Positions 44 through 30,342 are shown, numbered from the stretch's first letter. The stretch: 32,000 bases of DNA from Patescibacteria group bacterium (GCA_041649575.1 JBAZMW010000001.1:150001-182000), one strand, 5' to 3'. Notes: generated by a model not told the origin, from the sequence alone. Made by a program: numbers and translations.

Positions 44-1189
44 TTAAGCTTTTTTTAGAGCCAGCCTTCTCTTTTCCGGCATAATTTCTTGATAGAGGCT
101 AATGGTTTGTTTGACGATATTGTCCCAACCGTATTCTTTGTCAACGCGGGTTTTGGCCAACTGGGCTTTATCTTTGATAATCTTAGGATTGTCACAGGCA
201 AAATTTAATTTTCTGGCCAAATCCTCAATGTCTTTGTTTTTAAATTCCAGAGCAAAGCCCTTGACCGCCTCCCGGTTTTCCTCGATATCACTAATCAGCA
301 CCGGAATATTATAGGCCATGGCTTCCAATAAGGCGATAGATAATCCTTCGGCTTCGGAGGGCTGGATAAAGAGATAAGAGTTCTTAAATAAAGTTTCTAA
401 ATCACCGCCTGATTTTTGGCCGGTAAAAATTATTTTGTCATTATTGGCCGACAAGTTTTTGAGATAGTTAACATAGTTGTCGGTATTGGCGCCAGTGCCC
501 ACCAGCACCAGTTTTTTTTCGGTTTTTAGCTGTTGGTAAGCTTTGATTAAGGTATGAATGCCTTTATGTTGGATCAGTCTGGAAACGGCAATCAGGTAGC
601 CGTTTTTTTCCAGATTATATTTCTTTAAGATGTCGTTAGAATTTTTATTTTCGATCAACTGGACGCCGTTGGGGATATAGCTGGTTTCGCGATCAAAACG
701 ATACTTGCAATACTTTTTTAAGGTTTCAGAAACGGTAATGGTTTGGTGAGGAAAGCGGCAGGCAGCCCATTCGCCTAGTCCTAACATAAACCTGGCAAAG
801 CCACCCCATTTTTGATGGTAGCGATCAATGCAGTGAAAGGTGGCGATTACTTTGGCCTTTGGCTTGAAAAGCCGCGGAATCCACGATAACAGAGAAGGCC
901 CAACGCCGTGATAATGAATAATGTCATAATCCTTAAACAATGAATCAATGGAAGCAAAAAGAGTATGAGTAATCGCATCCAAATTTTTAGTCTTAATTGA
1001 AGGCAAATTAATAATTTTTACTCCCTGATAGGTATAAGAATTTTTGTAATTACCGGTGTAGTAGGCACGACTATAAACCGTGACATCAAAGCCTGCCCGG
1101 GCTAGCCTGGTAGAGAGCTCTTCGACATGTTTTTCAATGCCGCCTTGTTTGGTTGGTATGCCTTTTTGCCCGATTAATGCTATTTTCAT
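44..1189 (-). CDS. Glycosyltransferase, family 4 (GT-B fold)
   Basis: The ORF is 381 aa. Its N-terminus (MKIALIGQKGIP..GGIEKHV) is typical of GT4, and the C-terminal block PSEAEGLSIALLEAMA matches the GT4 E-x7-E region. There is no SD; an ATG follows an A/T-rich leader. Confidence 0.85.
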   Translation of the reverse strand: MKIALIGQKGIPTKQGGIEKHVEELSTRLARAGFDVTVYSRAYYTGNYKNSYTYQGVKIINLPSIKTKNLDAITHTLFASIDSLFKDYDIIHYHGVGPSLLSWIPRLFKPKAKVIATFHCIDRYHQKWGGFARFMLGLGEWAACRFPHQTITVSETLKKYCKYRFDRETSYIPNGVQLIENKNSNDILKKYNLEKNGYLIAVSRLIQHKGIHTLIKAYQQLKTEKKLVLVGTGANTDNYVNYLKNLSANNDKIIFTGQKSGGDLETLFKNSYLFIQPSEAEGLSIALLEAMAYNIPVLISDIEENREAVKGFALEFKNKDIEDLARKLNFACDNPKIIKDKAQLAKTRVDKEYGWDNIVKQTISLYQEIMPEKRRLALKKA

Positions 1190-1208
1190 AGATTCTTTTT
1201 AAGGGTTA

Positions 1209-1237
1209 ATCGTAGCAAATAAATAAAATCTTGTCAA
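1209..1237 (-). promoter_or_regulatory. Sigma70-type promoter for the GT4 gene
   Basis: On the minus strand: TTGACA (1232-1237), a 17-nt spacer, then TACGAT (1209-1214). The -10 box ends about 20 nt upstream of the ATG at 1189. Confidence 0.55.
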
Positions 1238-1286
1238 GGGCTATTTTTTGTTTTTAAGAGGATAAATCATTTTTGTTAAATTTAAG

Positions 1287-1334
1287 TAAAATAATAAGGT
1301 GGGGCCAAGCGATTTGCCGTCGCTTGGTCCCACC
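1287..1334 (-). terminator. GC-rich intrinsic terminator of cassette A
   Basis: On the minus strand: GGTGGGaCCAAGCGA-cggcaaa-TCGCTTGGcCCCACC (1298-1334), followed by ttattatttta. The hairpin starts 17 nt after the stop at 1352-1354. Confidence 0.7.
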
Positions 1335-1351
1335 AGGTGATGCACCTTCAA

Positions 1352-2542
1352 TCATCGGAAAAAGGGGACGCTCAGCGCCGCCATTTCCGGAGGCCGGTCT
1401 TCGAACACCAGCGAGCCACCTCGCAGGGTTATTGCCCGGCCATCAGTCGTGGCCGTTGGCACAGACCAGTTCCAGAGCGCCGCTTCCCAGGTGTCGCCGT
1501 TGGAGTCAATCCCGTCCAATTGGGTCATCAGGGTGTTGCCTGGCAACTCCATAATGACCGCCTGGCTGATCGAGAAGATCTGTTGGCGATAAACCGTCGC
1601 CGAGTCGCTGGTCCAACAAGTGAAGCGTACCAGCATGATGTCTGGCGGGCTACCAGTAAACAGGTTGCCAATTGCTGCTCCGTCGGCGTCGATCGTGGCT
1701 GTCAGCTTGCGGCCGTCAGCGGCATAGGCGAAGACCAGGCCCGGATGCGGCGTGTTGGCGGCTACTGTCAGCGCGGCGACATTGGACATTGTCTCCACGA
1801 TGACGTTTCTCACGACGCAGGTGTAGCTGCCGTTGTCCGAGACTTGCGCGGCGGTGATGATGAAAGCAGAGTTGGTGGCCCCACTTATCGCCGTGCCGTC
1901 CTTCTTCCATTGATAGGTGAAGAGCGGCAGATTGAAGCTGGAATCGGCTGCTACCGTGAACGTGGCCTGCGCATCGACGGCCACTGTTTGTGACGCCGGC
2001 TGCGTGTTAATCACTGGTGCGGCTGGTGCTGGTGTGGATAGGTCGAGGTTGTAACTGGCATCGGGTCGAACGGTAAGCGCCACGCCGTTGAGCCAGGCGT
2101 GGGCGATGCCGATTCCAAGCGATGGATCGGTATTGGCAAATATCCGTTGTTGGACGCCGCCGGGCGCGACCACAAAGTAGGGTGTGGTCCATAGCACCGG
2201 ATTGGTACTAAAGTCGAAGTCGACCGTGGCGCCAGAGAAGCTGGAAATGCCGTTGTAGCCGACCCCAGCGGTCTCTCCGATCGCGTCGCCGTTCGTTCCG
2301 ACGGCGCTAGTCTCGCAATGAGCCATCCAGGGAGGGACACTTCCGTACAACGCGGTCCCGCAAGCCGCGACATCCGACCACAGGTAATCGGGCTGGCCGG
2401 CGGCCACTTGCTTGAAGGTGCTGCCGTCGGCCAGGAAGACCACGTACAACTGGTCTTCACCAGGCTGGTGGAGATAGTAGACTTCCGCGGCTTGCACCCA
2501 GGCGGGGTAGACAAACAATAGTAGTACGAGTAGTTTCTTCAT
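1352..2542 (-). CDS. Secreted protein with one Ig-like (I-set/YQW-type) domain; high-GC cassette A
   Basis: I chose the ATG at 2542, not the track start at 2593, because GAAAGGAG lies 7 nt upstream. The N-terminus MKKLLVLLLFVYPAWVQA-AE is a signal peptide with an AXA cleavage site. The Ig-like block is QPASQTVAVDAQATFTV..YQWKKDGTAISGATNS..GSYTCVV. Overlapping ORFs in other frames are typical of GC-rich DNA. Confidence 0.75.
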   Translation of the reverse strand: MKKLLVLLLFVYPAWVQAAEVYYLHQPGEDQLYVVFLADGSTFKQVAAGQPDYLWSDVAACGTALYGSVPPWMAHCETSAVGTNGDAIGETAGVGYNGISSFSGATVDFDFSTNPVLWTTPYFVVAPGGVQQRIFANTDPSLGIGIAHAWLNGVALTVRPDASYNLDLSTPAPAAPVINTQPASQTVAVDAQATFTVAADSSFNLPLFTYQWKKDGTAISGATNSAFIITAAQVSDNGSYTCVVRNVIVETMSNVAALTVAANTPHPGLVFAYAADGRKLTATIDADGAAIGNLFTGSPPDIMLVRFTCWTSDSATVYRQQIFSISQAVIMELPGNTLMTQLDGIDSNGDTWEAALWNWSVPTATTDGRAITLRGGSLVFEDRPPEMAALSVPFFR

Positions 2543-2667
2543 GACACGACTCCTTTCGTCGGTTTGTGTGGGCAAAGATTGATCGTCGCCCACTTATGGA
2601 CAACAATCAACCGTTGACAATGTGCTTTCCGATTCTGGATAAATTACCACCAGATTCAGAACGTTGT

Positions 2668-2696
2668 ATTTTATATTATCTTTCGTAATTTGTCAA
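2668..2696 (-). promoter_or_regulatory. Sigma70-type promoter of cassette A
   Basis: On the minus strand: TTGACA (2691-2696), N17, TAAAAT (2668-2673). It sits in an AT-rich spacer 8 nt downstream of cassette B's terminator T-run. The implied 5' UTR is about 110 nt. Confidence 0.6.
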
Positions 2697-2703
2697 GTCT
2701 TTA

Positions 2704-2740
2704 TAAAAAAAGAAAACAGCTGATGCGCGCACCAGCTGCT
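2704..2740 (-). terminator. GC-rich intrinsic terminator of cassette B
   Basis: On the minus strand: GCAGCTGgTGCG/CGCAtCAGCTGT hairpin (2716-2740), followed by tttcttttttt (2704-2715). Confidence 0.7.
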
Positions 2741-2775
2741 GATAGTATGATGTACAAACGAGCAATCCCGAGACC

Positions 2776-3921
2776 CTAGAGTTGGCATGTCCAGGTGCTT
2801 CGGAGATCTTTGGCGGTCAGCTCTCCGTTGAAGAAGAGGTTGATGTAGTCCGGGTTAGCCCAGACCGTGCTGCCGTCTTGTCGGCGAGCTACCAGGTTGA
2901 ACCTCAAGGACGGTGTCCGGCCGGGACTGAGGAAAAACCGCAAGGGCCGAGTGGCTCCGGCCAGGTCTTTTCCTTCAATCGCACTCCAGGGCGGAGTGGA
3001 AACGGTGTCATAATAGCGAATGACATCAACCCGTCTGATCTGCGACCAGTCTGTCACGCCCGGGAAAGCCAGAGAGACGTGCTCCAGTCCTTGGTAGAGG
3101 CGAGCCTCGATCTTAGCTTTGGGCCAGACGCTGTCGTAGGTGAGCCAGAGAGTGGCTCGAAGTGGGGATGGTTCTATGACTACGTCGCGGATGACAGTTA
3201 AAGCCCAGTTTCCAGTAGAGTCCGCCACATCATACGACAAATAGTAGAAGCCAGGTTGTCGAGAATCGATCGATCCGGAGGCGATGATGTGACTGGTTAT
3301 GTCGCCGTCGATGTTATCAACGGCAGTCGCGCCCGGGTCGACGAATTCGTCACCAACCATGATGTAGGAAGTGAACCTGGTCATGAAGGCCAAGAGCAGA
3401 CTTCTTTGACCTGGTTGGTTTACCGGTATCAACCAGTATCCCAGCGGGCCATTGGCATCTTCGGCTTCCTCTTGCGGCTCGCCATCAACCGTGCAGGTGA
3501 GATTTGGCAGGTAGGCCCAGTATAAGCCGTCGGTTGTGGCGGGGTTGGGCGTGGTTGCATGCCTGGCAACCAGCGTGACCGCTACCGAGCCGACATCCGG
3601 CGGGAATTCGTGGGTGACAGCTAACCGTTCTGGGCAGTTAGGCGAGAATCCGGAAGTGGTGAATTTCATGGTGCTATAATTACCGCACCACATCATCACG
3701 CCGACATTCTCGATATTAGCGTCGGGTAGATCAATGAAGAGATCAGTCAGGAAATGGCATTCATCTTCATTGAAGTGAACCCATAGACTGGGCACCAGAC
3801 CGGTGTTAGCCATGGGCCAATTCTTCTGAGTGTCGCCTGGAGTTACGGCCGCTGGCGGACAACCGCTTAAGGGAACTAATGCTACTGCCAGGAGTAGTGT
3901 TGGGGCAATCAAGTTTTTCAT
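2776..3921 (-). CDS. Lipoprotein with a DUF5011-like bacterial Ig-like domain; high-GC cassette B
   Basis: The ORF is 381 aa, with GAAAGGA 7 nt upstream of the ATG. The signal peptide ends in the lipobox LSGC. The block VGDEFVDPGATAVDNIDGDITSHI..GFYYLSYDVADSTGNWA..R.VVI matches my recollection of the DUF5011 pattern. The N-terminal module resembles the central module of cassette C protein (HF..ECHF..MMWCGNY versus HHW..NCF..AMVCAYPN). Confidence 0.72.
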   Translation of the reverse strand: MKNLIAPTLLLAVALVPLSGCPPAAVTPGDTQKNWPMANTGLVPSLWVHFNEDECHFLTDLFIDLPDANIENVGVMMWCGNYSTMKFTTSGFSPNCPERLAVTHEFPPDVGSVAVTLVARHATTPNPATTDGLYWAYLPNLTCTVDGEPQEEAEDANGPLGYWLIPVNQPGQRSLLLAFMTRFTSYIMVGDEFVDPGATAVDNIDGDITSHIIASGSIDSRQPGFYYLSYDVADSTGNWALTVIRDVVIEPSPLRATLWLTYDSVWPKAKIEARLYQGLEHVSLAFPGVTDWSQIRRVDVIRYYDTVSTPPWSAIEGKDLAGATRPLRFFLSPGRTPSLRFNLVARRQDGSTVWANPDYINLFFNGELTAKDLRSTWTCQL

Positions 3922-3967
3922 GTCTTGATCCTTTCTGCCAAGCCCAACCAGAGGTCGGGGGTAGAAA

Positions 3968-4040
3968 GCGTGGACAAGATTTGCAAAAGTTATTGTCCAC
4001 GCCTGTGGACAACAGCTGTAAGCATGGGGCGCTGTCCACG
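3968..4040 (-). promoter_or_regulatory. Four-segment alternative-hairpin element in the 5' UTR of cassette B
   Basis: The 7-mer GTGGACA/TGTCCAC occurs four times in alternating orientation (3970-3976, 3994-4000, 4005-4011, 4033-4039). Mutually exclusive pairings are possible: a perfect 10-bp inverted repeat (3968-3977 with 3993-4002) and a perfect 8-bp inverted repeat (3993-4000 with 4005-4012). Confidence 0.4.
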
Positions 4041-4103
4041 GCCCTAGAAATCACAACTTCTCAAGGTGCTCCAAACCCGGGAACTGCCAGGGTTTAGTTG
4101 GTT

Positions 4104-4132
4104 ATTGTATGTTATTTTTTATAACTTGTCAA
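4104..4132 (-). promoter_or_regulatory. Sigma70-type promoter of cassette B
   Basis: On the minus strand: TTGACA (4127-4132), N17, TACAAT (4104-4109). It lies 12 nt downstream of cassette C's terminator T-run. The implied 5' UTR is about 180 nt. Confidence 0.6.
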
Positions 4133-4144
4133 TTAGTATTTAAG

Positions 4145-4198
4145 ATAAAAAAAGAAGGGGAACAGCCATGACTCTCTCGTGAGAGATGGCTATTCCCC
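4145..4198 (-). terminator. GC-rich intrinsic terminator of cassette C
   Basis: On the minus strand: GGGGAAtAGCCATctCTCTC-acga-GAGAGtcATGGCTgTTCCCC (4157-4198), followed by ttctttttttat (4145-4156). The hairpin starts 20 nt after the stop at 4219-4221. Confidence 0.75.
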
Positions 4199-4218
4199 GT
4201 CCAAGGTACAGAGCCCGC

Positions 4219-6714
4219 TTAGAGCGCGGGCATGTCGTAGTTGTCGCCGTCCGCCCGGCTCATGACGCTGCCATTCCAGGTTCCGGGAACCTTGCCAGTA
4301 TTGACGAAGTACCTGGCTGGGTCGCCGGAGAGTTTGACGAACGGGACGGCTCTTCGCGGCTTGTCCGAAACGTCCAACGTCACCGACGATGACCCTGACA
4401 CAGTCATCGTCGCCGACTTACTCTCGTGCCGCGACGGTTGGCTCGTCCACAGCCATAAGATCCCGACCTCGCAAACGTCGGCGTAGGTCTTGCCGGACGG
4501 CAGATTGCTGTACGGCGAGATGATCTCGGCCAGCGTCAGGCTGTCAGGCAGGATGCGGAGGTTGACCGTTGACCCGCCGCTGTAAGTGAATTCAGCGACA
4601 AGGGTCGTCGATGCTCCGACTATCAGTATGGCCTCGGTGGAGGTCACACTGCCGACAGCGTTGGAGACGGTGCAAGCGTAACGAGCCGTGTCAGTGTTCG
4701 TCACACCGAGCGTGAAGCTGGAGTTGGTGGCTCCGCTTATTGCCACGCCGTCCTTCTTCCACTGATACGAGAGCGGCGTCGTGCCCGAGGCCACAACCGT
4801 GAACGTAACCAGCGATCCAATACTGGCCGTCTGTGATACCGGTTGCGTGGTGATCGTCGGGGCGACCGCTGTCGATTCGATTGTCAGTGTAGCCACATTG
4901 GACGTTGCTGTTCCAGCGGCGTTTTTCACGACACAGCGATAGGCGCCTTCGTTGATCGCACCTGCCGACAGAATAGTGAGCGCGGAGCTCTTCACACCTA
5001 TCGAAGCGCTGTTCTCTGCGATGTCAACGCCGTTCATCTGCCATTGGTATGACAGCGGCGCTGTGCCCGTAGCCGTGACACTGAAGGTGGCCGACGCACC
5101 CAGGTCCACAGTAAGCGAGTCTGGCTGTTTGGTGATCGTCGGGGCGACGGCTGTCGACGCTAGCGTCAGCGTTGCCACGTTCGACGTTGCTGTTCCAGCG
5201 GCGTTCTTCACGATACAGCGGTAGGCGCCAGCATTCACTGTGCCAACTGACAAGATTGTAAGAGTCGGACTCTTTATTCCCGTAGACGCGCTGTTCTCGG
5301 GAATGTCCACTCCGTTGTCTTGCCATTGGTATGACAGTGGCGCTGTGCCGGTGGCCGTGACACTGAAGATCGCCTGTTCGCCGACGTTTACCGTCAGTGA
5401 ATCCGGCTGTTTGGTGATCGCCGGGCTGATGGCTTCTCCTGCGGCCATGGCCACGTCGATTTTGTAGTAGCCGAGTCCTTGCCCGCTGGAGCCGGTCTCC
5501 TCGTGGAGTTCGGTTCCGCCACTCACGCCGATGCCTTGCACTGTGCCGTTCTCGGCGGCATCGACCCGCCAGAGTTTGACCCAGTAGAAATGGTCGGAGT
5601 TCGGGTGTTTGGCTGCGAGTCGTAGCTCGATCTGTTCGGCGCCGGCCATGTTCTGTTGCCAGACACCTTTGAGATTGATCACGGCCGGCGTACCATACTC
5701 CCAGTCGGGTGGTGGTACTGGCAGGATGATGCCGCCAGTATCGTTCGGGTACGCGCAAACCATCGCGCAGAGTCCGCTCGGAGACTGGTCATCGGGCCAT
5801 CCGATGAAGCAGTTCCTCAGATCCCAGTGGTGTACATCGCAGTACACCGAGAGTTCGTCGCTGGTGTTGACGACGTTCAAGGTGACAATCGCGCTGTCGT
5901 CTTGCCAGGGGATTTCGCCCTCTCCTTCGCCTTCGCCTTCTCCTTCTCCGGCGTGATGGTTGGGATGGTCGTCCGGATTCAGTGGGTCGGTACCGGCATT
6001 GATTTCTTCGCGGTCCGTGTAGCCGTCTCCATCCGTGTCGGATCCGTACTGACCATACGGCAGGGTACCATAGAAGCATTCCTGCCAGTTGGGTACGCCA
6101 TCGCTGTCCGGATCGCCTAGGGACCCGTTTTCGCCCGCCGGATCGTGCGGATCCAGCGAGTTTAGTGACTCCCAGAAATTGGGCATGCCGTCGCCGTCGG
6201 TATCGTCCAGTTCCGGAGCTTGCCGCCGGATGAAGATCGTGATCACAGAGTCGTGTCCGTTTAGTTTAACGGATAGGTCGACTCTGATCGACTTCGCCGC
6301 CGGGCTTGGTGGTACCGTTACCTCCCACTGCGTGCCGTCTCCTTCGATGTGGGGCGGGTCACTGGGAACACCAAATGGTTTACCCACCTCATTGAGATAG
6401 AGTCCATCGGTGATGCCACTGGCTTTGCCGCAGTCAAGCGGGAAGTCGACCCACTGGCCTTGCATTTCGGGCAGGGAAATCTCATACGAAACCGTCCCGC
6501 CCCTGGCGCAGTCGAAGTGGGCGCCGTCGATCTTGATCTTGGCCCCGTGTGAAATAACCACTCCAGGGTTGGCAACCTCGACAATTCCGATTTGCTGTCC
6601 GGTCTCGCCGAAGGTCGTCACCAGGATCGACATCTCTCTTTTTTCGGGGCATCCTACGAACAGAAGCCCCATGGCCAACGTAACTGCCACGCACATACTC
6701 ACTCTCGTCTTCAT
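4219..6714 (-). CDS. Large lipoprotein with thrombospondin-type-3-like Ca-binding repeats, a (GE)6 linker and three tandem Ig-like domains; high-GC cassette C
   Basis: I chose the ATG at 6714 because AAAGGAGG lies 4 nt upstream; the track start at 6765 is a TTG. The N-terminus MKTRVSMCVAVTLAMGLLFVGC carries a lipobox-like VGC. Asp-rich repeats (DTDGDGMPN, DPDSDGVPN, DTDGDGYTD) resemble TSP type 3. There are three units of the form QPDSLTV..ATFSVTATGTAPLSYQW..GAYRC.VKNAAGTATS. Confidence 0.8.
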   Translation of the reverse strand: MKTRVSMCVAVTLAMGLLFVGCPEKREMSILVTTFGETGQQIGIVEVANPGVVISHGAKIKIDGAHFDCARGGTVSYEISLPEMQGQWVDFPLDCGKASGITDGLYLNEVGKPFGVPSDPPHIEGDGTQWEVTVPPSPAAKSIRVDLSVKLNGHDSVITIFIRRQAPELDDTDGDGMPNFWESLNSLDPHDPAGENGSLGDPDSDGVPNWQECFYGTLPYGQYGSDTDGDGYTDREEINAGTDPLNPDDHPNHHAGEGEGEGEGEGEIPWQDDSAIVTLNVVNTSDELSVYCDVHHWDLRNCFIGWPDDQSPSGLCAMVCAYPNDTGGIILPVPPPDWEYGTPAVINLKGVWQQNMAGAEQIELRLAAKHPNSDHFYWVKLWRVDAAENGTVQGIGVSGGTELHEETGSSGQGLGYYKIDVAMAAGEAISPAITKQPDSLTVNVGEQAIFSVTATGTAPLSYQWQDNGVDIPENSASTGIKSPTLTILSVGTVNAGAYRCIVKNAAGTATSNVATLTLASTAVAPTITKQPDSLTVDLGASATFSVTATGTAPLSYQWQMNGVDIAENSASIGVKSSALTILSAGAINEGAYRCVVKNAAGTATSNVATLTIESTAVAPTITTQPVSQTASIGSLVTFTVVASGTTPLSYQWKKDGVAISGATNSSFTLGVTNTDTARYACTVSNAVGSVTSTEAILIVGASTTLVAEFTYSGGSTVNLRILPDSLTLAEIISPYSNLPSGKTYADVCEVGILWLWTSQPSRHESKSATMTVSGSSSVTLDVSDKPRRAVPFVKLSGDPARYFVNTGKVPGTWNGSVMSRADGDNYDMPAL
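4849..5412. repeat. Two tandem 282-bp repeat units coding Ig-like domains
   Basis: The string ggtgatcgtcggggcgac starts at 4849 and at 5131; a related ggtgatcgccgggc starts at 5413. The period is therefore 282 bp (94 codons). The encoded units are about 80% identical. A more diverged third unit lies at about 4567-4848. Confidence 0.85.
5914..5949. repeat. Hexanucleotide-type low-complexity repeat encoding (Gly-Glu)6
   Basis: The sequence ttcgccctctccttcgccttcgccttctccttctcc encodes GEGEGEGEGEGE on the minus strand, between the TSP3-like region and the central module. Confidence 0.8.
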
Positions 6715-6926
6715 GTTGCCTCCTTTGCCCTTGAGGGCTGTCTGTGTTGGTCGCCCTCGGGGCAACCGTCTTCACTATGTGACACTCCATTACAACACTC
6801 TTACTTGCAAACGAACAACGCGGTTGTTCGTTTTCCTTCTTTGTTTCAAAGGACTGCCGACCACGAGTTCCATGGTCGCTTAAACTGGCCTAAGTCAAAA
6901 GAAAGACCGACCAAGTTTAATATATT

Positions 6927-6955
6927 ATTTTAGCAAGATTATATTTTTTTGTCAA
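6927..6955 (-). promoter_or_regulatory. Sigma70-type promoter of cassette C
   Basis: On the minus strand: TTGACA (6950-6955), N17, TAAAAT (6927-6932). The implied 5' UTR is about 210 nt and contains a perfect 10-bp hairpin at 6810-6832. Confidence 0.6.
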
Positions 6956-6980
6956 GATCTAAAAAATTTTTTAAAAATAA

Positions 6981-7015
6981 AAACAAAAAATTCTGATTAT
7001 CAGAATTTTTTGTTT
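6981..7015 (-). terminator. AT-rich palindromic terminator after the 7029-8306 gene
   Basis: The 16-nt arms are perfectly complementary: aaacaaaaaattctga / tta / tcagaattttttgttt. The element lies 14 nt past the stop at 7029-7031. The T-rich and A-rich arms make it look bidirectional. Confidence 0.55.
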
Positions 7016-7028
7016 AAATTTAGATAAA

Positions 7029-8306
7029 TTATTTAGCCTGAACTTTACCGTCACTTTTTTCGAATTCATCTCTGGATAAAGCGGTGGTAATTGAGTAAGG
7101 AGTGACAATATCAATCAGCTCGCTGGTAAAATCATCAGAAGCTGCCAAAGAAATGTTTTCTAAAAGGGAAGCCGGCTGGCCGATTTGTTCTTCAGTGGGA
7201 ATAATTTCTATTTCAAAAGCGGCCCCGACGCTGGGTAAAAAATTCGATGGCGCATAGACCTTGTCTATATTCCAGTTAATCTTTTTATTCGCTGGGTCAT
7301 AAATGATAGCCGAACCGTTGGCAGCACTGAAGCGATTAGTCCAGGAGACGTTAGTTGGCAGTTGGGCGCTGATAGTAAGGTTATTCAAGTCGTTGTATTT
7401 ATTTTCTAGGTTCAGAAAAATCCAATACCTGGTTGGCTGGCCAACTTGCGGTGGCAGTGGGCCAAAACCAAGCTGATCACTCTCCTCGGTATAATAGCGG
7501 GCAAAAGCGACTACTTTACTTTCGGTGCTTATCCTCTGGTTCAATGGTTGACCGGTGCTAAAAATAGGGGACGAATTTCTTTCATTATTTCGATAAAATG
7601 CTTCGACATGACTGCTAAGAACGAAATTCTTATCGTGAGCAGAGCTCTGCGGCAGTGACTTTTTGGTTTTGATGGAGAATTTAATTTCGCCAGTTTGTCC
7701 CGGATCCACCGAGGCCAGTTGCGGCAGCTGTTCTTTATTCCAGGTAATGACGCTTTCGCCGTCAATCATTCTTTCGTCAAAGATGGCTTTTAGTCGCAGG
7801 TCTTTCAAAATAAAATTTTCTCGATTTTCATATTTAAGCACATAGGAATAAAATTGCCCCAGGTCGATATTTTTTTCGGATGAAACCAGGCTTAGGATTA
7901 AGTTGGTTTTGGCCGCCGGGACTGTTTCAGTGGTAGACGCTTCTTGATAATTGCCATGAGAAATAAAGCTGTTAGAAAAATCATTTCTTGTTTTCGGTGA
8001 GGACAGTAAGAGTAAAAGATTGAAAACAATAAGAAAGATAATAGTTATAGCCAGCAGCAAATCCACAATCAGGTGCCAGTAGCCATATTTGTTCTTTTGC
8101 GGACTGTAGTGCTTGTGCCAGCGCTTTCTGGCGGGAGAGATAAAAACATTAAGCGTGCCAATAATGACGTTGCCGCTTTTTTTGACTTTTAACTGATCGG
8201 GATAAATAGTGACGGCCGTCTGATCGTCCGATTCTCTGGGTTTGGCCTCGATGATCTCGGCTTTTGTTTCATCGGGAAGTTCTATCAGGGAAGTTTGATC
8301 CGGCAT
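7029..8306 (-). CDS. Single-pass membrane protein, function unknown
   Basis: The ORF is 425 aa. It has one strongly hydrophobic segment (YWHLIVDLLLAITIIFLIVFNLLLLL) followed by a large beta-rich C-terminal region. Its composition matches the backbone, and it lies 15 nt downstream of the preceding gene, so it is probably in an operon. Confidence 0.7.
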   Translation of the reverse strand: MPDQTSLIELPDETKAEIIEAKPRESDDQTAVTIYPDQLKVKKSGNVIIGTLNVFISPARKRWHKHYSPQKNKYGYWHLIVDLLLAITIIFLIVFNLLLLLSSPKTRNDFSNSFISHGNYQEASTTETVPAAKTNLILSLVSSEKNIDLGQFYSYVLKYENRENFILKDLRLKAIFDERMIDGESVITWNKEQLPQLASVDPGQTGEIKFSIKTKKSLPQSSAHDKNFVLSSHVEAFYRNNERNSSPIFSTGQPLNQRISTESKVVAFARYYTEESDQLGFGPLPPQVGQPTRYWIFLNLENKYNDLNNLTISAQLPTNVSWTNRFSAANGSAIIYDPANKKINWNIDKVYAPSNFLPSVGAAFEIEIIPTEEQIGQPASLLENISLAASDDFTSELIDIVTPYSITTALSRDEFEKSDGKVQAK

Positions 8307-8321
8307 TTTTTTTCTTGATTA

Positions 8322-10448
8322 TTAATTCGCGGCATATTCAAAATTATTATTTTTTTCGATAAAGCTGGTGGTAAAAACATTGGTGGTTAGCGCCAGTATT
8401 TCGGCCTGGCCATCACTGTCAATGTCGCTCGCCAGCGGCTTGACGCCTTCGCGTTTTTGCGGATTGTAGGCCAGCCAAGAATTTAACAACCTGCCTTGCT
8501 GATTGAAAATTTTTATCTCCGGGCTACCGCCGAATCCAGGACCGGTGATGATCTCGTCTTGGCCGTCGCCGTTAACATCGCCGCAAGCGACATTGACGCC
8601 GCCGGCAAATTTTTTATCGTAAGCGAAGAAACCCATTGACAATAGTTTACCACGATTATCAAAGATTTTCACATGAGGCCCGCCAGGACTGGAGGCGCCA
8701 ACAACAATTTCGCTCTGGCCGTCGCCGTTAACATCGCCAGCAGCTACATTAACTCCCATTTTAGTCCAAGCTTTATTATAGGCATAAAAGCTGGTTGGTT
8801 TTGTTTTCCCTTGCCAGTTGAAAATTTTGACCAAATTAGCGCCGCCGGTTTCCGGGCCAGTGATAATCTCTTGCCAGCCATCATTATCCAAATCGGCGAC
8901 GGCCAGAGATAGGCCGCCGGCAAACTTAGAGCCATAAGGATAAAATTCGGCAATATTCTCTTGAGCGCTGTTATAAATTGTTATTTTATTTTTGGCGGCT
9001 ACCAAAAATTCTTTTTGACCGTCATTATTCAAATCGGTTTTGCTGATTTTATTGCCTCCCAGAAACAGTGAAACATAAGCAAAGAAGCCATTTCTCACGG
9101 TGTGTCCATAAGCATTAAAAGGTCTGGCAAAAGAACCATTAGCAAAAACGCCATCTTCGATTTCCGCTAGCGGTCTCAAAAGAATGACGCCATCGCCGGC
9201 TTCCAGCGATAGTTTATCAAGACGCGAGCCATTGTTTATTTCTGGGTCTTGGATGCCGTGTATTTTCTCGTATTCCGAGTCAAAGCTGACGGTTTGTTTT
9301 TTGTCGGTTGAATTTACAATAGCCACGCCGTTGGCAAAATCTCTTTGCCACAAGCCGGGCTGGAGATTATTGTTCGAAGTCAGGAGGTTTTTAGGAGAGG
9401 ATTTGGCCGGACCTAAGTTGACGTCATATTCGTCGTACCACCAAAAGTGCTCTCTTAGCTGGGTTCCAAAATTAAAACCATAATAGCCATTATAGAGCAG
9501 AGCACTGGCCAGTCCAAAGCGCATCAACTGGTAATTGGTACGATTGCCGGTATTATCGGTGTCAACGTTGATAATATTTAGACGCGGCAGATAGCCAGAA
9601 TTATTGGTATCGCGGTAGCGTTTCATCGAGCCATCCCAGCCACCTTCCCAATATTCGGGAAAACCTTCAAACATCCGGCCATTAAGATCCAAGTATGGGC
9701 CGTCGCCATTGCCGACAATCAGATATTTATCGCCAAATTTGTTTCTTAGATTTTTAAACAGATTTTTATAACCTTCTTGCCAAAGACGATCGATTTTTTC
9801 GGCGGAATCCAGATAACCGTCAGCGTCAATATCGATGCGCGAATTAACCCAGGAGACGTTTTGCCAGACATTGTCGAGCAGCAAGCCGTCCCAAAGGCCG
9901 GTGGCCAGCACTTTATTCTGATAGAAGTCGGCTAAATAATCGGCATAAGACTTTCCGAGCCGGTTTTTGACATAAAGATTCATGGAAATATTGCCCGGCC
10001 AGAAAGAGATATTTTCTCCAGCCACGGTTTTCAATTGCCAGCGGGGGTCGCTCTCCTTGGCCAAGGTGTGCCACAGGCCAGCGCCTTGCGGCTCAACCAC
10101 TGATAGCCTTTCGAGCGGGATTTCGTTGGCGGAAGTATAGGCCAAAATAACAATCCTGGGGTTTAGTTTCCTGATTAGTTTGATTTCTTGCTGACTAGTG
10201 CTTTGAGCCTGCATATCCAGAGCCAACAGATCATAAGCAGCCAGCTTAACAGCCTCTTCTTGAGTGATTGGAGTTTTCCAATATAAATTGACGGTACGAG
10301 GAAAGTTATAACTAAGCAAATCGACAGCTAAAAGCGACTTAAGCGGCAGAAGAATGGCGCTGAAAAAAGCCGCTAAAATCAAACTGCCGGCCAGAATTTT
10401 TTGCCAAAGCTTTATTTGCAAGTTGGTTTTGGGAAACAAAACAAACAT
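8322..10448 (-). CDS. Membrane-anchored protein with a glycoside-hydrolase-like TIM-barrel region and C-terminal FG-GAP/VCBS repeats
   Basis: The ORF is 708 aa with an N-terminal transmembrane segment. There are five Ca-binding FG-GAP-like repeats: DLNNDGQKE, DLDNDGWQEIITG, GDVNGDGQSEIVVG, GDVNGDGQDEIITG and SDIDSDGQAEIL. The N-terminal half resembles GHL-type putative glycosidases, but I recognise that only weakly. Confidence 0.7.
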   Translation of the reverse strand: MFVLFPKTNLQIKLWQKILAGSLILAAFFSAILLPLKSLLAVDLLSYNFPRTVNLYWKTPITQEEAVKLAAYDLLALDMQAQSTSQQEIKLIRKLNPRIVILAYTSANEIPLERLSVVEPQGAGLWHTLAKESDPRWQLKTVAGENISFWPGNISMNLYVKNRLGKSYADYLADFYQNKVLATGLWDGLLLDNVWQNVSWVNSRIDIDADGYLDSAEKIDRLWQEGYKNLFKNLRNKFGDKYLIVGNGDGPYLDLNGRMFEGFPEYWEGGWDGSMKRYRDTNNSGYLPRLNIINVDTDNTGNRTNYQLMRFGLASALLYNGYYGFNFGTQLREHFWWYDEYDVNLGPAKSSPKNLLTSNNNLQPGLWQRDFANGVAIVNSTDKKQTVSFDSEYEKIHGIQDPEINNGSRLDKLSLEAGDGVILLRPLAEIEDGVFANGSFARPFNAYGHTVRNGFFAYVSLFLGGNKISKTDLNNDGQKEFLVAAKNKITIYNSAQENIAEFYPYGSKFAGGLSLAVADLDNDGWQEIITGPETGGANLVKIFNWQGKTKPTSFYAYNKAWTKMGVNVAAGDVNGDGQSEIVVGASSPGGPHVKIFDNRGKLLSMGFFAYDKKFAGGVNVACGDVNGDGQDEIITGPGFGGSPEIKIFNQQGRLLNSWLAYNPQKREGVKPLASDIDSDGQAEILALTTNVFTTSFIEKNNNFEYAAN

Positions 10449-28428: not shown

Positions 28429-28457
28429 TTGACAAAAAGCAGCTGTCATAATACAAT
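28429..28457 (+). promoter_or_regulatory. Sigma70-type promoter of cassette E
   Basis: TTGACA (28429-28434), N17, TACAAT (28452-28457). It begins 3 nt after the NUDIX stop codon. AAGGAGG (28489-28495) lies 8 nt upstream of the ATG at 28504. Confidence 0.6.
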
Positions 28458-28503
28458 GTCATTTTAGGAGCGTGGTACTTTCAACAACAAGGAGGATCTG
28501 GCC

Positions 28504-28872
28504 ATGTTACTGGACTGCGGGGCTTATCTCGAATTACCGGGCAATCTTCAGCGTGAGCTGGCTAGGCCACTGGCCGAGCTCAATCAGGAGCTCGGAAATC
28601 TCTGGCAGCGAGTAGGCGCCCTGGAAGAAGGACAAGGGGACTACCGAGCACTCGCCCAGGAAGTCTTTGAACAGCTTCTGGCCGAGGTCAAGATGTGGGT
28701 CAGAGGCATCGCCGCGCGGGAAGTATTGGACAGCGGCAGGCAGGCCGAACTTGCCAGGGCAGCCCGCAACTTCCAACTGCGGGTGATCGAGGCGGTTTAT
28801 ACTCTGGGGATAGAGTTTTCCTCTACCGTGCTGGTGGAAGAACCATCGGCGGCAGCAGCGGTTGTCGGCTGA
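28504..28872 (+). CDS. High-GC cassette E: small, predicted all-helical cytoplasmic protein, function unknown
   Basis: The ORF is 122 aa with a strong SD and about 63% GC in a hand-counted line. The sequence is Leu/Glu/Ala/Arg-rich and heptad-like, with no signal peptide. I recognise no family. Confidence 0.6.
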   Translation: MLLDCGAYLELPGNLQRELARPLAELNQELGNLWQRVGALEEGQGDYRALAQEVFEQLLAEVKMWVRGIAAREVLDSGRQAELARAARNFQLRVIEAVYTLGIEFSSTVLVEEPSAAAAVVG

Positions 28873-28903
28873 AAAGGTTTCGCCTTGAAGTTCTGGTGGC
28901 ACA

Positions 28904-28946
28904 AGAGCTGCTCCAACGGCTTGGAGCAGCTTTTTCTTTTGTTTTT
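28904..28946 (+). terminator. GC-rich intrinsic terminator of cassette E
   Basis: GCTGCTCCAA-cggc-TTGGAGCAGC (28907-28930), followed by tttttcttttgttttt. Confidence 0.75.
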
Positions 28947-29852: not shown

Positions 29853-29883
29853 GACAACTCTCTCCTTTGGTTCAAGGAGAGAG
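29845..29883 (-). terminator. Intrinsic terminator of cassette F, overlapping the mutM stop
   Basis: The hairpin is ctctctcctt-tggttc-aaggagagag (29858-29883). On the minus strand it is followed by ttgtcttattttt. No T-run follows it on the plus strand, so it is oriented for cassette F rather than mutM. Confidence 0.65.
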
Positions 29884-29919
29884 CATGTGTACGATTGTTC
29901 GCTTGGCGCCTCGGGCTGG

Positions 29920-30342
29920 CTAGGCGGCCGGTGTTTTAACAGTTCTTAATGCTTCTAGATGCGTCCGGCATTGCTCGGCGAGCTTCTGGGCGGTTTCATA
30001 CATTCTCATATCGGCCGCATGTTCCGCCTCATCTTCCTGTCTGGCTTGCGCGACCATTTCATCGGAGACTCTGGCTTTTGCTTCAGCGATTTTCTCCGCG
30101 TCGCCGGTCGTCAGTTCTTCTATCTCGCCCGCCAAAGTCCTGGGGTTGATATAAGCCAGTTGTGGCTTTGTCATGCCCTCAAGCTCTTTGATCAGGTCTT
30201 CCAGAAGAACCATTGAGACCCTGTCGATGATGGTTTCCGGGGTGTCTCCCTCTCGCAGGTTGATGTGGGCGTCACCGGGAGCGCCAACGCCCCCTACGCC
30301 CACATTAATTGAGCTGATTGTCCGCGCGCTGTCGTCTGGCAT
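29920..30342 (-). CDS. High-GC cassette F: small acidic, predicted helical protein, function unknown
   Basis: The ORF is 140 aa, with AAGGAGGG 6 nt upstream of the ATG at 30342. A Gly-rich N-terminal stretch (VGVGGVGAPGD) is followed by Glu/Ala-rich helices. There is no signal peptide and I recognise no family. Confidence 0.6.
   Translation of the reverse strand: MPDDSARTISSINVGVGGVGAPGDAHINLREGDTPETIIDRVSMVLLEDLIKELEGMTKPQLAYINPRTLAGEIEELTTGDAEKIAEAKARVSDEMVAQARQEDEAEHAADMRMYETAQKLAEQCRTHLEALRTVKTPAA

Follow-up and report, generated by a model that had tools for sequence, protein, structure and literature searches.

The three GC-rich genes that occupy positions 1287-6955 of a 32,000-nt stretch of Patescibacteria group bacterium DNA (GCA_041649575.1 JBAZMW010000001.1:150001-182000; this whole stretch is called the window below) are probably the local content of a hypervariable surface-protein slot, which in one clade of Patescibacteria lies between a surface-glycan cluster on one side and a GT4 gene with a type IV pilus operon on the other. 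The genes, termed here A (1352..2542), B (2776..3921) and C (4219..6714), are all encoded on the minus strand and form a head-to-tail array. As we envisage it, such a slot would hold one to several genes for secreted proteins or lipoproteins that arose by the shuffling of beta-sandwich modules, with I-set immunoglobulin (Ig), DUF5011, InlB B-repeat, PASTA and TSP3 domains, at least three family-specific domains, and (GE)n linkers as the building blocks.

A clade-specific slot upstream of the GT4 gene

That the three minus-strand genes are more GC-rich than their flanks, as claimed in an earlier reading of this DNA (hereafter the original prediction), is borne out both by 500-nt bins, in which GC is 0.50-0.61 over 1501-6500 and 0.40-0.47 on either side of the array, and by the genes themselves (GC of 0.60, 0.55 and 0.59, and GC at third codon positions, GC3, of 0.72, 0.63 and 0.70, for A, B and C respectively). 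For the 23 remaining open reading frames (ORFs) of the window, median GC is 0.45 (range 0.34-0.59), and GC3 spans 0.29-0.63. The array also lies, as had been proposed, at the edge of a surface-glycan locus: upstream is a cluster encoding Wzz, Wzy, glycosyltransferases, a GHL15/FG-GAP protein and, as its last member, a 425-aa membrane protein, and downstream are the conserved GT4 gene (44-1189) and then the type IV pilus operon. Elsewhere the window is ordinary bacterial chromosome, with SecA and a dcw cluster containing MraY, MurD, FtsW, MurG, MurC and MurB. The host of the array is a Patescibacteria chromosome, and NCBI names A, B and SecA as proteins of 'Patescibacteria group bacterium'.

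Sharp changes of composition at the junctions, together with two related contigs (L005 and L006; L numbers denote loci in relatives) that end within their islands, could also arise if GC-rich foreign DNA had been joined to an AT-rich genome during assembly or binning, an artifact that the original prediction had itself named as a possible refutation. However, an identical copy of the array with both of its flanks is found on a 126-kb ENA contig and in a separate Logan assembly, and a look-up for the array lists longer contigs as well, up to a 245-kb NCBI contig of a metagenome-assembled genome (MAG). Analogous islands lie inside contigs of 467-702 kb, and promoters and terminators of host type are predicted between the GC-rich genes. 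Given its recovery from two assemblies that are separate from each other, the array is not chimeric, and we assign next to no likelihood to such an artifact. The breaks of L005 and L006 inside the island hint at strain heterogeneity.

In related genomes, the same position is filled by different genes. At L009, L007, L005 and L006, where a 708-aa neighbor is 54-59% identical, GC jumps to 0.53-0.59 right after the orthologue of the 425-aa gene and is back at backbone level ahead of GT4 on every contig that extends that far. With GT4 as the seed, a scan of metagenomes retrieved 80 loci, and among those with enough upstream sequence, an island (at least 1 kb at a GC at least 0.08 above that of GT4, within 3 kb upstream) was present at 14 of the 17 whose GT4 is at least 59% identical and at two of 37 more distant loci. 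The most extreme case is L023, on a 702-kb contig, where an island with a GC of 0.53-0.59 is set in a backbone of about 0.28. The island is a clade-specific slot just upstream of the GT4 gene and type IV pilus operon.

The comparison of this interval among relatives, for which the original prediction had called, finds the slot differently populated. Both gene number, which ranges from 1 to 4, and domain architecture vary, and most products are secreted proteins or lipoproteins composed of beta-sandwich modules, and the suggestion of a diversifying surface-protein family gains support from the different members of one mosaic family that relatives carry at the same chromosomal position. L013 (GT4 69% identical) has a C-like and an A-like gene in the same order, at ~29-40% identity, and no counterpart of B; residues 1-334 of A are 31% identical to the gene at the same position there.

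Some of these loci have features of their own. A non-coding region of ~420 nt at L009 (14020-14440), of intermediate GC and with several hairpins, extends from the backbone terminator to the first slot promoter and has no counterpart in the window. At L066 (GT4 50% identical), the same slot (1800-9800) holds an 8.5-kb block with a GC of 0.60-0.67 and a GC3 of 0.85, versus a backbone GC3 of 0.36; its four genes, three of them lacking host-type promoters, include those for MopE-like and Dicty_CTDC repeat proteins, and the block looks like a genuinely foreign import. Loci L005-L008 clearly belong to this Patescibacteria clade and come from records titled 'uncultured Gammaproteobacteria bacterium', which are probably mislabeled MAGs.

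Mosaic proteins of the slot

Signal peptides and lipoboxes, read by eye from the translations, agree with the prediction of one secreted protein and two lipoproteins. Protein A (396 aa) is secreted, with a signal peptide that ends in WVQA and is followed by AE, and consists of an N-terminal domain with a weak relationship to the C-terminal one of C, an I-set Ig domain (aa 176-260) and, at its C-terminus, an orphan region. Protein B (381 aa; lipobox VPLSG followed by C) contains a module termed 'YW' (nt 3388-3837), a DUF5011-type Ig-like domain (PF16403, aa 185-247) and a divergent C-terminal domain. Protein C (831 aa; lipobox LLFVG followed by C) begins with a domain that it has in common with an archaeal protein, followed by TSP3 repeats (TSP3_bac), a (GE)n linker, a second 'YW' module (nt 5485-5931), three I-set Ig domains (~4615-5430) and a C-terminal 'DGDNY' beta-sandwich (4222-4617).

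Two of the modules that the array genes were originally thought to share could be verified. Pfam recognizes the I-set domain above its gathering threshold in both C (127.5 bits, three copies) and A (44.9 bits for Ig_3 and 29.5 bits for I-set), and Ig domains align between A and C at 49% identity; the I-set region of C (~nt 4615-5430) is in part a 282-nt tandem repeat. The 'HxW..CF' (or 'YW') module, N-terminal in B and central in C, was not detected by direct BLASTP of B against C; it is nonetheless real, as a protein from L006 bridges the two (E of 1.4e-14 to B and of 3.4e-17 to C), and a four-sequence alignment (A4) makes its conserved core visible. The third module, a related C-terminal domain in all three proteins, had to be rejected as stated. 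The last 132 residues of C do define a family of their own (alignment A3), but the counterpart in A is N-terminal (residues 28-158) and weak (E about 2e-3), and B is tied to the family only indirectly or marginally. The AlphaFold model of full-length C is poor outside the Ig and C-terminal domains (predicted local distance difference test, pLDDT, 60.7); modeled alone, the C-terminal domain reaches a pLDDT of 88.5 and adopts a generic FnIII/Ig-like sandwich, for which no informative neighbor was found in the PDB (best match with E of 0.015 and a template-modeling score of about 0.4). The (GE)n linkers, which are short and encoded by a 12-nt tandem repeat, stand between domains in many slot proteins, among them those of the window (5914-5949), g2 and g3 of L009, L013 and protein P0184, and are seemingly a hallmark of the family.

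The mosaic build recurs across the slot, and the family is rare. Over 28 slot proteins, Pfam finds Flg_new_2 (the InlB B-repeat) in 10, DUF5011 in six, I-set in six, TSP3 in three and PASTA in two, alongside (GE)n linkers and the N-terminal, YW and C-terminal domains that are specific to the family. The C-terminal domain is represented by nine cluster representatives in 1.84 billion proteins; the seven proteins retrieved all have the same mosaic build, and a signal peptide and lipobox are present in all four whose N-terminus is intact. Among the viral contigs and the relatives with GC-rich backbones that were examined, none contained the family domains, scans of IMG/VR with profiles of the C-terminal and YW domains gave no match, and matches among PHROG and GenBank phage proteins were limited to the Ig or DUF5011 domain.

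Searches for homologues with A, B and the N-terminal half of C returned matches to generic domains only, with one exception: the N-terminal half of C has its best relative in P0097 (37% identity over 250 residues), whose gene shares an archaeal contig with those for the proteasome, prefoldin, RpoP, L37ae and the exosome. The P0097 gene (L011 2604-4736, also in L012) itself specifies a lipobox, TSP3, PASTA and InlB B-repeats, and is likewise preceded by a long leader and followed by a terminator hairpin; its GC of 0.53-0.59 is nearer to that of its own backbone (about 0.49).

These searches also bear on whether the array could be a single recent acquisition, in which a three-gene block was donated by some GC-rich bacterium (a member of the PVC group, say, where I-set Ig proteins abound) and has not yet ameliorated. 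In GC and GC3 the array genes are indeed outliers, and the best external matches to the Ig and TSP3 domains include proteins of Opitutaceae and Kiritimatiellia. However, those matches cover ~20-25% of the query at no more than ~54% identity and are confined to generic domains, A and B found no full-length relatives, and no donor lineage can be named; no donor genome with syntenic, near-identical genes was found either. Moreover, at least 15 other genomes carry GC-rich genes in this slot that are related to those of the array without being the same, and every gene of the array stands behind a host-type promoter in AT-rich spacer, all of which makes a one-off transfer very unlikely.

Predicted transcription units and the question of mobility

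As the original prediction held, each array gene is preceded by a TTGACA-N17-TA(A/C)AAT promoter in AT-rich spacer, matching the consensus at 11 of 12 positions in every case, and is followed by a GC-rich hairpin and T-run; predicted features are given here in transcriptional order, all of them on the minus strand. The left boundary of the slot is the terminator of the 425-aa upstream backbone gene (7029-8306), located at 6981..7015 and consisting of a 16-bp stem and then a T-run. The unit of gene C opens with a promoter at 6927..6955 (TTGACA-N17-TAAAAT, with TG ahead of the -10 box), continues with a 5' leader of ~206 nt (6715..6926) that forms a chain of hairpins, the first ~7 nt past the -10 box, and whose 3' end is the Shine-Dalgarno sequence AAAGGAGG, and closes with a terminator at 4145..4198 (hairpin 4198..4157, -32.0 kcal/mol, then the T-run TTCTTTTTTTAT). 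Gene B has its promoter at 4104..4132 (TTGACA-N17-TACAAT), a leader of ~176 nt (3922..4103) with a 5' hairpin, two hairpins with GTGGACA/TGTCCAC arms and a weak Shine-Dalgarno site (GAAAGGA), and a terminator at 2703..2740 (hairpin 2740..2715, -15.6 kcal/mol, then TTCTTTTTTTAT). Gene A follows with a promoter at 2668..2696 (TTGACA-N17-TAAAAT), a leader of ~119 nt (2543..2667) that contains a hairpin at its 5' end, a long one in the middle and AAAGGAG as its Shine-Dalgarno site, and a terminator at 1288..1334 (hairpin 1334..1298, -25.6 kcal/mol, then a T-rich run). The right boundary is the promoter of the backbone GT4 gene (1209..1237; TTGACA-N17-TACGAT, 10/12 match), a homologue of which is present in L009 and L007. 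Of these terminators, that of B and the backbone one were detected by a scan, and the hairpins after C and A were read from the sequence itself. All four promoters are correctly oriented within AT-rich spacers, and by their motifs the predicted promoters of the array are the host's ordinary extended -10 type, the same as that of GT4.

The leaders thus come close to the lengths first estimated (~110, 180 and 210 nt for A, B and C), and the Shine-Dalgarno sites, including the weaker one of B, could be read directly. All three leaders fold better than dinucleotide shuffles: that of C has a minimum free energy of -74.2 kcal/mol (z = -3.8), and z is -3.4 for B and -3.2 for A. The leaders gave no match to any Rfam family, neither when the whole window was scanned at the gathering threshold nor when 1150-7100 was scanned with E up to 1. 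In the leader of B (~3960-4045), the two successive GTGGACA/TGTCCAC hairpins could pair alternatively, which amounts to an attenuator-like layout, with no T-run after it.

Much the same architecture recurs in relatives. Over 17 loci, a TTGACA-type promoter scoring 10-12 of 12 precedes 21 of the 27 slot genes examined, and the predicted leaders of these 21 genes are 48-260 nt long in 20 and about 8 nt in one. Most slot genes combine a ribosome-binding site of the AGGAG type with a signal peptide, in many cases one that has a G-C-P lipobox, and most complete genes have a terminator. In all 13 leaders tested, a hairpin starts 1-10 nt past the -10 box, and whole leaders again fold better than dinucleotide shuffles (median z about -3.3, n=17); they cannot be aligned across loci, and none matched an Rfam family. 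We infer from these features that slot genes are strongly and stably expressed as monocistronic messages. Each would be an autonomous, probably strongly expressed transcription unit, with a near-consensus promoter for the host sigma-70, a long and highly structured leader whose hairpin at the 5' end of the transcript likely stabilizes the mRNA, a strong ribosome-binding site, and an intrinsic terminator efficient enough to halt read-through into the next unit.

The tight packing of such units raises the possibility that they are cassettes of a new kind, promoter-to-terminator units that insert head to tail by a dedicated, unseen mechanism and resemble integron cassettes except in being self-expressing. 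The units are modular, with only 8 and 12 nt between the T-run and the next -35 box at the two internal junctions; slot gene number varies; an imperfect 30-nt direct repeat, AAATRATTTATC-N7-AAACAAAAAAT, matching at 23/30 positions, brackets the array with one copy at each boundary (1243-1272, minus strand, and 7005-7034); and the 10-bp palindrome CTAAATTTAG lies upstream of slot and GT4 promoters at several loci. Against this, no integrase, transposase or recombinase is encoded in or beside the slot (ORF lists and Pfam, window plus 10-kb flanks), in keeping with what the original prediction had noted for the array. The genes around the array (glycan cluster, GT4, type IV pilus operon, dcw cluster and SecA) are chromosomal, with no phage gene nearby; searches for the family domains in viruses and phages yielded no copy, and ARAGORN finds no tRNA or tmRNA usable as an integration site. 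A search for repeats revealed neither a shared junction element nor an attC-like inverted repeat: the junction hairpins are dissimilar terminators, and the junctions have nothing in common beyond promoter and terminator consensus. The 12-mer TTCTTTTTTTAT that had been noted at both junctions does occur exactly twice in the window, once per internal junction, but since it is the T-run of a terminator, it carries little weight as a repeat element. Some slot genes, finally, are predicted to be co-transcribed without a promoter of their own.

Neither the bracketing repeat nor the palindrome generalizes convincingly over loci, and both were rejected as general elements. Only 0.5% of local shuffles reached the observed match of the bracketing repeat; similar bracketing matches exist in L023 and L030, and not in L007, L018 or L032. 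The palindrome lies ~30-120 nt upstream of slot-gene and GT4 promoters in several relatives (L009 14423-14432 and 16962-16971, L005 13840, L021 5046, L024/L025 9919, L030 9882, L035 9879 and L063 1209), has only a degenerate copy in the window (7014-7023), and could be an operator or an UP-like element. With no integrase, attC-like element or phage gene, with promoters of the GT4 type, and with a bracketing repeat that is not general, a new mobile-element class is not supported, and we give the cassette mechanism only a slim chance. The original prediction did not recognize the array as any described class of mobile element; the concepts of its unit and of its island have both been described (PMC4378225, PMC4033161). 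We also considered whether the slot might be the target of a diversity-generating retroelement and rejected this: the repeats of the island are tandem Ig copies and the Ig similarity between A and C, and no reverse transcriptase was found among the ORFs scanned, which did not include every small ORF of the window.

Self-contained GC-rich units are not confined to surface proteins in the window genome. Two small orphan ORFs elsewhere in the window are as GC-rich as the array genes. The first (28429-28934, plus strand; GC 0.59) has a TTGACA-N17-TACAAT promoter, an AAGGAGG ribosome-binding site and a strong terminator around an ORF of 122 aa, whose product looks helical and has no signal peptide and no Pfam or PHROG match; the second (29857-30342, minus strand; GC 0.55) consists of a 140-aa ORF and then a terminator.

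Origin of the slot content and relation to known systems

Island GC3 is 0.55-0.69 whatever the GC3 of the backbone (0.14-0.55), with the L066 block as sole exception. Backbone GC3 is 0.50 in the window, 0.40 in L009, 0.55 in L013, 0.53 in L030 and 0.14 in L023, where the island stands at 0.67. Codon usage correlates at 0.52-0.79 between islands, versus 0.31 (window) and -0.10 (L009) between an island and its own backbone, and GC at the first and second codon positions is uniformly 0.48-0.53 in islands and 0.36-0.43 in backbones. Codon usage and the constant GC3 favor a shared gene pool that is not equilibrated with its hosts. In the reading that we prefer, the slot would vary by occasional replacement through homologous recombination in its conserved flanks, probably after natural transformation, and the replacements would come from a pool shared by the clade, with a composition (GC3 about 0.55-0.7) independent of the recipient genome. 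The proteins would be displayed on the envelope, where they may bind the surface of a partner or host, or vary to evade phage or host defenses.

The slot genes might instead be native, fast-evolving and vertically inherited, their GC-richness maintained locally by selection (for example, for stable structured mRNAs or for a certain amino-acid content) or by a recombination hotspot with GC-biased gene conversion, and not by import from a pool. This is a possible but less probable origin. The slot is clade-specific and hence probably ancestral, the L013 genes are positional homologues of A and C, and the family-specific domains are known from these islands only, with no donor found; these three observations agree with a resident family, held at high GC by selection or biased conversion, just as well as with a shared pool. 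Promoters, lipoboxes and terminators are of host type, leaders are strongly structured, and the uniform composition of the first two codon positions points to a family-wide amino-acid bias. However, the GC3 gap of L023 is opposite to what translational selection would favor in so AT-rich a genome and far exceeds reported effects of gene conversion. Two orphan genes of the window that do not encode secreted proteins are equally GC-rich, and islands are closer in codon usage to other islands than to their own hosts.

Several observations weigh against replacement from a shared pool or against the functions that we ascribe to the slot. No pair of near-identical island genes in distant backbones was found. 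The sole near-identical pair of slots, in L024 and L025 (99.7-99.96% identical), differs by one copy of a 219-bp (73-aa) tandem domain repeat within a slot gene (L024 8848-9333), that is, by repeat copy number and not by replacement. For A and C and their counterparts in L013, vertical descent with fast divergence fits as well as exchange, and DNA identity of the flanks between relatives is ~65-70%, which is poor for homologous recombination. At L013 and L030, island GC3 (0.59 and 0.56) is near that of the backbone, and high GC is not peculiar to genes for surface proteins, as the products of the orphan units at 28429-28934 and 29920-30342 are not secreted. The unit architecture has its exceptions, as g3 of L009, the first three genes of L066 and the genes of L070 have no promoter of their own. 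The promoters were located by consensus scan, the functions of promoters, terminators and leaders are consensus and folding predictions only, and adhesion is read from domain types alone.

A bolder view, which we consider unlikely, would make the slot a clade-wide 'landing pad' for promoter-leader-gene-terminator cassettes of GC-rich mosaic lipoproteins that serve as determinants of host or partner recognition. The cassettes would circulate without a dedicated recombinase among Patescibacteria of very different composition, perhaps also archaea, and would retain the composition of their family without amelioration to the host, as a counterpart of the moron in the chromosome and outside phages.

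Most Patescibacteria are epibionts that have not been brought into culture, and little is known of what determines their choice of host. A slot that is conserved in position and fast-changing in content, lies beside a type IV pilus operon and is apparently built for high expression is thus a candidate host-recognition determinant, and its easily recognized flanks make surveys of strain variation and host association in metagenomes feasible. Findings on cultivated Patescibacteria make a role in attachment to a host or partner plausible: natural competence is present, epibiotic growth depends on pili and adhesins (PMC10633639), and in Paceibacteria that parasitize archaea, secreted Ig-fold proteins are among the most highly expressed genes (PMC10936435). 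The occurrence of one gene family at a GC3 of ~0.6-0.7 in genomes that themselves range from 0.14 to 0.55 is an unusual pattern, which bears on how fast foreign or otherwise special genes equilibrate in streamlined genomes. Islands of this kind can also break assemblies and mislead composition-based binning.

Among known systems, integron cassette arrays likewise consist of head-to-tail single-gene units in variable number at one site. The slot differs from them in having neither intI nor attC. It also differs, as the original prediction had pointed out, in that a promoter and a terminator are predicted for each unit of the array; integron cassettes usually carry no promoter and depend on a shared one, Pc, for expression. 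In Thermococcales, a hypervariable gene module encodes secreted multi-Ig proteins with a proposed role in recognition or conflict (PMC8416519). So far as that module's description goes, it resembles the slot in being a hypervariable locus centered on secreted multi-Ig proteins and is set apart by lineage, domain set and neighborhood.

In their organization, slot genes resemble vacA, whose mRNA is stabilized by a 5' stem-loop (PMC4843948). Like genes of that type, they are predicted to be monocistronic, with a strong promoter, a long leader with a 5'-proximal stem-loop, a strong ribosome-binding site and an efficient terminator; for the slot, stabilization is a prediction, and its leaders are not conserved in sequence between loci and match no Rfam family. 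S-layer genes and ompA are further examples of highly expressed surface-protein genes with stabilizing 5' leaders.

The nearest concepts are replacement flexible genomic islands and phage morons. Morons are self-contained promoter-gene-terminator units of deviant composition (PMC4378225). Like them, slot genes have their own predicted promoter and factor-independent terminator, are set between two neighboring genes and differ from those neighbors in nucleotide composition. Morons, however, are defined in phage and prophage genomes, whereas the slot is part of a cellular chromosome, its PHROG matches are to generic Ig domains only, and its units form a recurrent homologous family at one position.

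Flexible genomic islands are usually AT-richer than the genome in which they reside. The slot is GC-richer than its genome, at a roughly constant absolute value across hosts, holds mosaic lipoproteins and not glycosyltransferases, and was compared among fairly distant genomes (GT4 59-69% identical) and not among strains within a species, the one near-identical pair of strains differing by repeat copy number and not by replacement. Several features are shared with the replacement islands of aquatic bacteria, in which variable surface genes occupy the same position (PMC4033161): both have a fixed position between conserved core genes with glycan-synthesis genes adjacent, an atypical composition and no mobility genes, and for both, homologous recombination in the flanks is the proposed route of exchange. 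In each relative, the position is taken by differing genes of similar cell-surface function, and in its position, its conserved flanks and its non-orthologous gene sets of equivalent function, the slot agrees with such islands.

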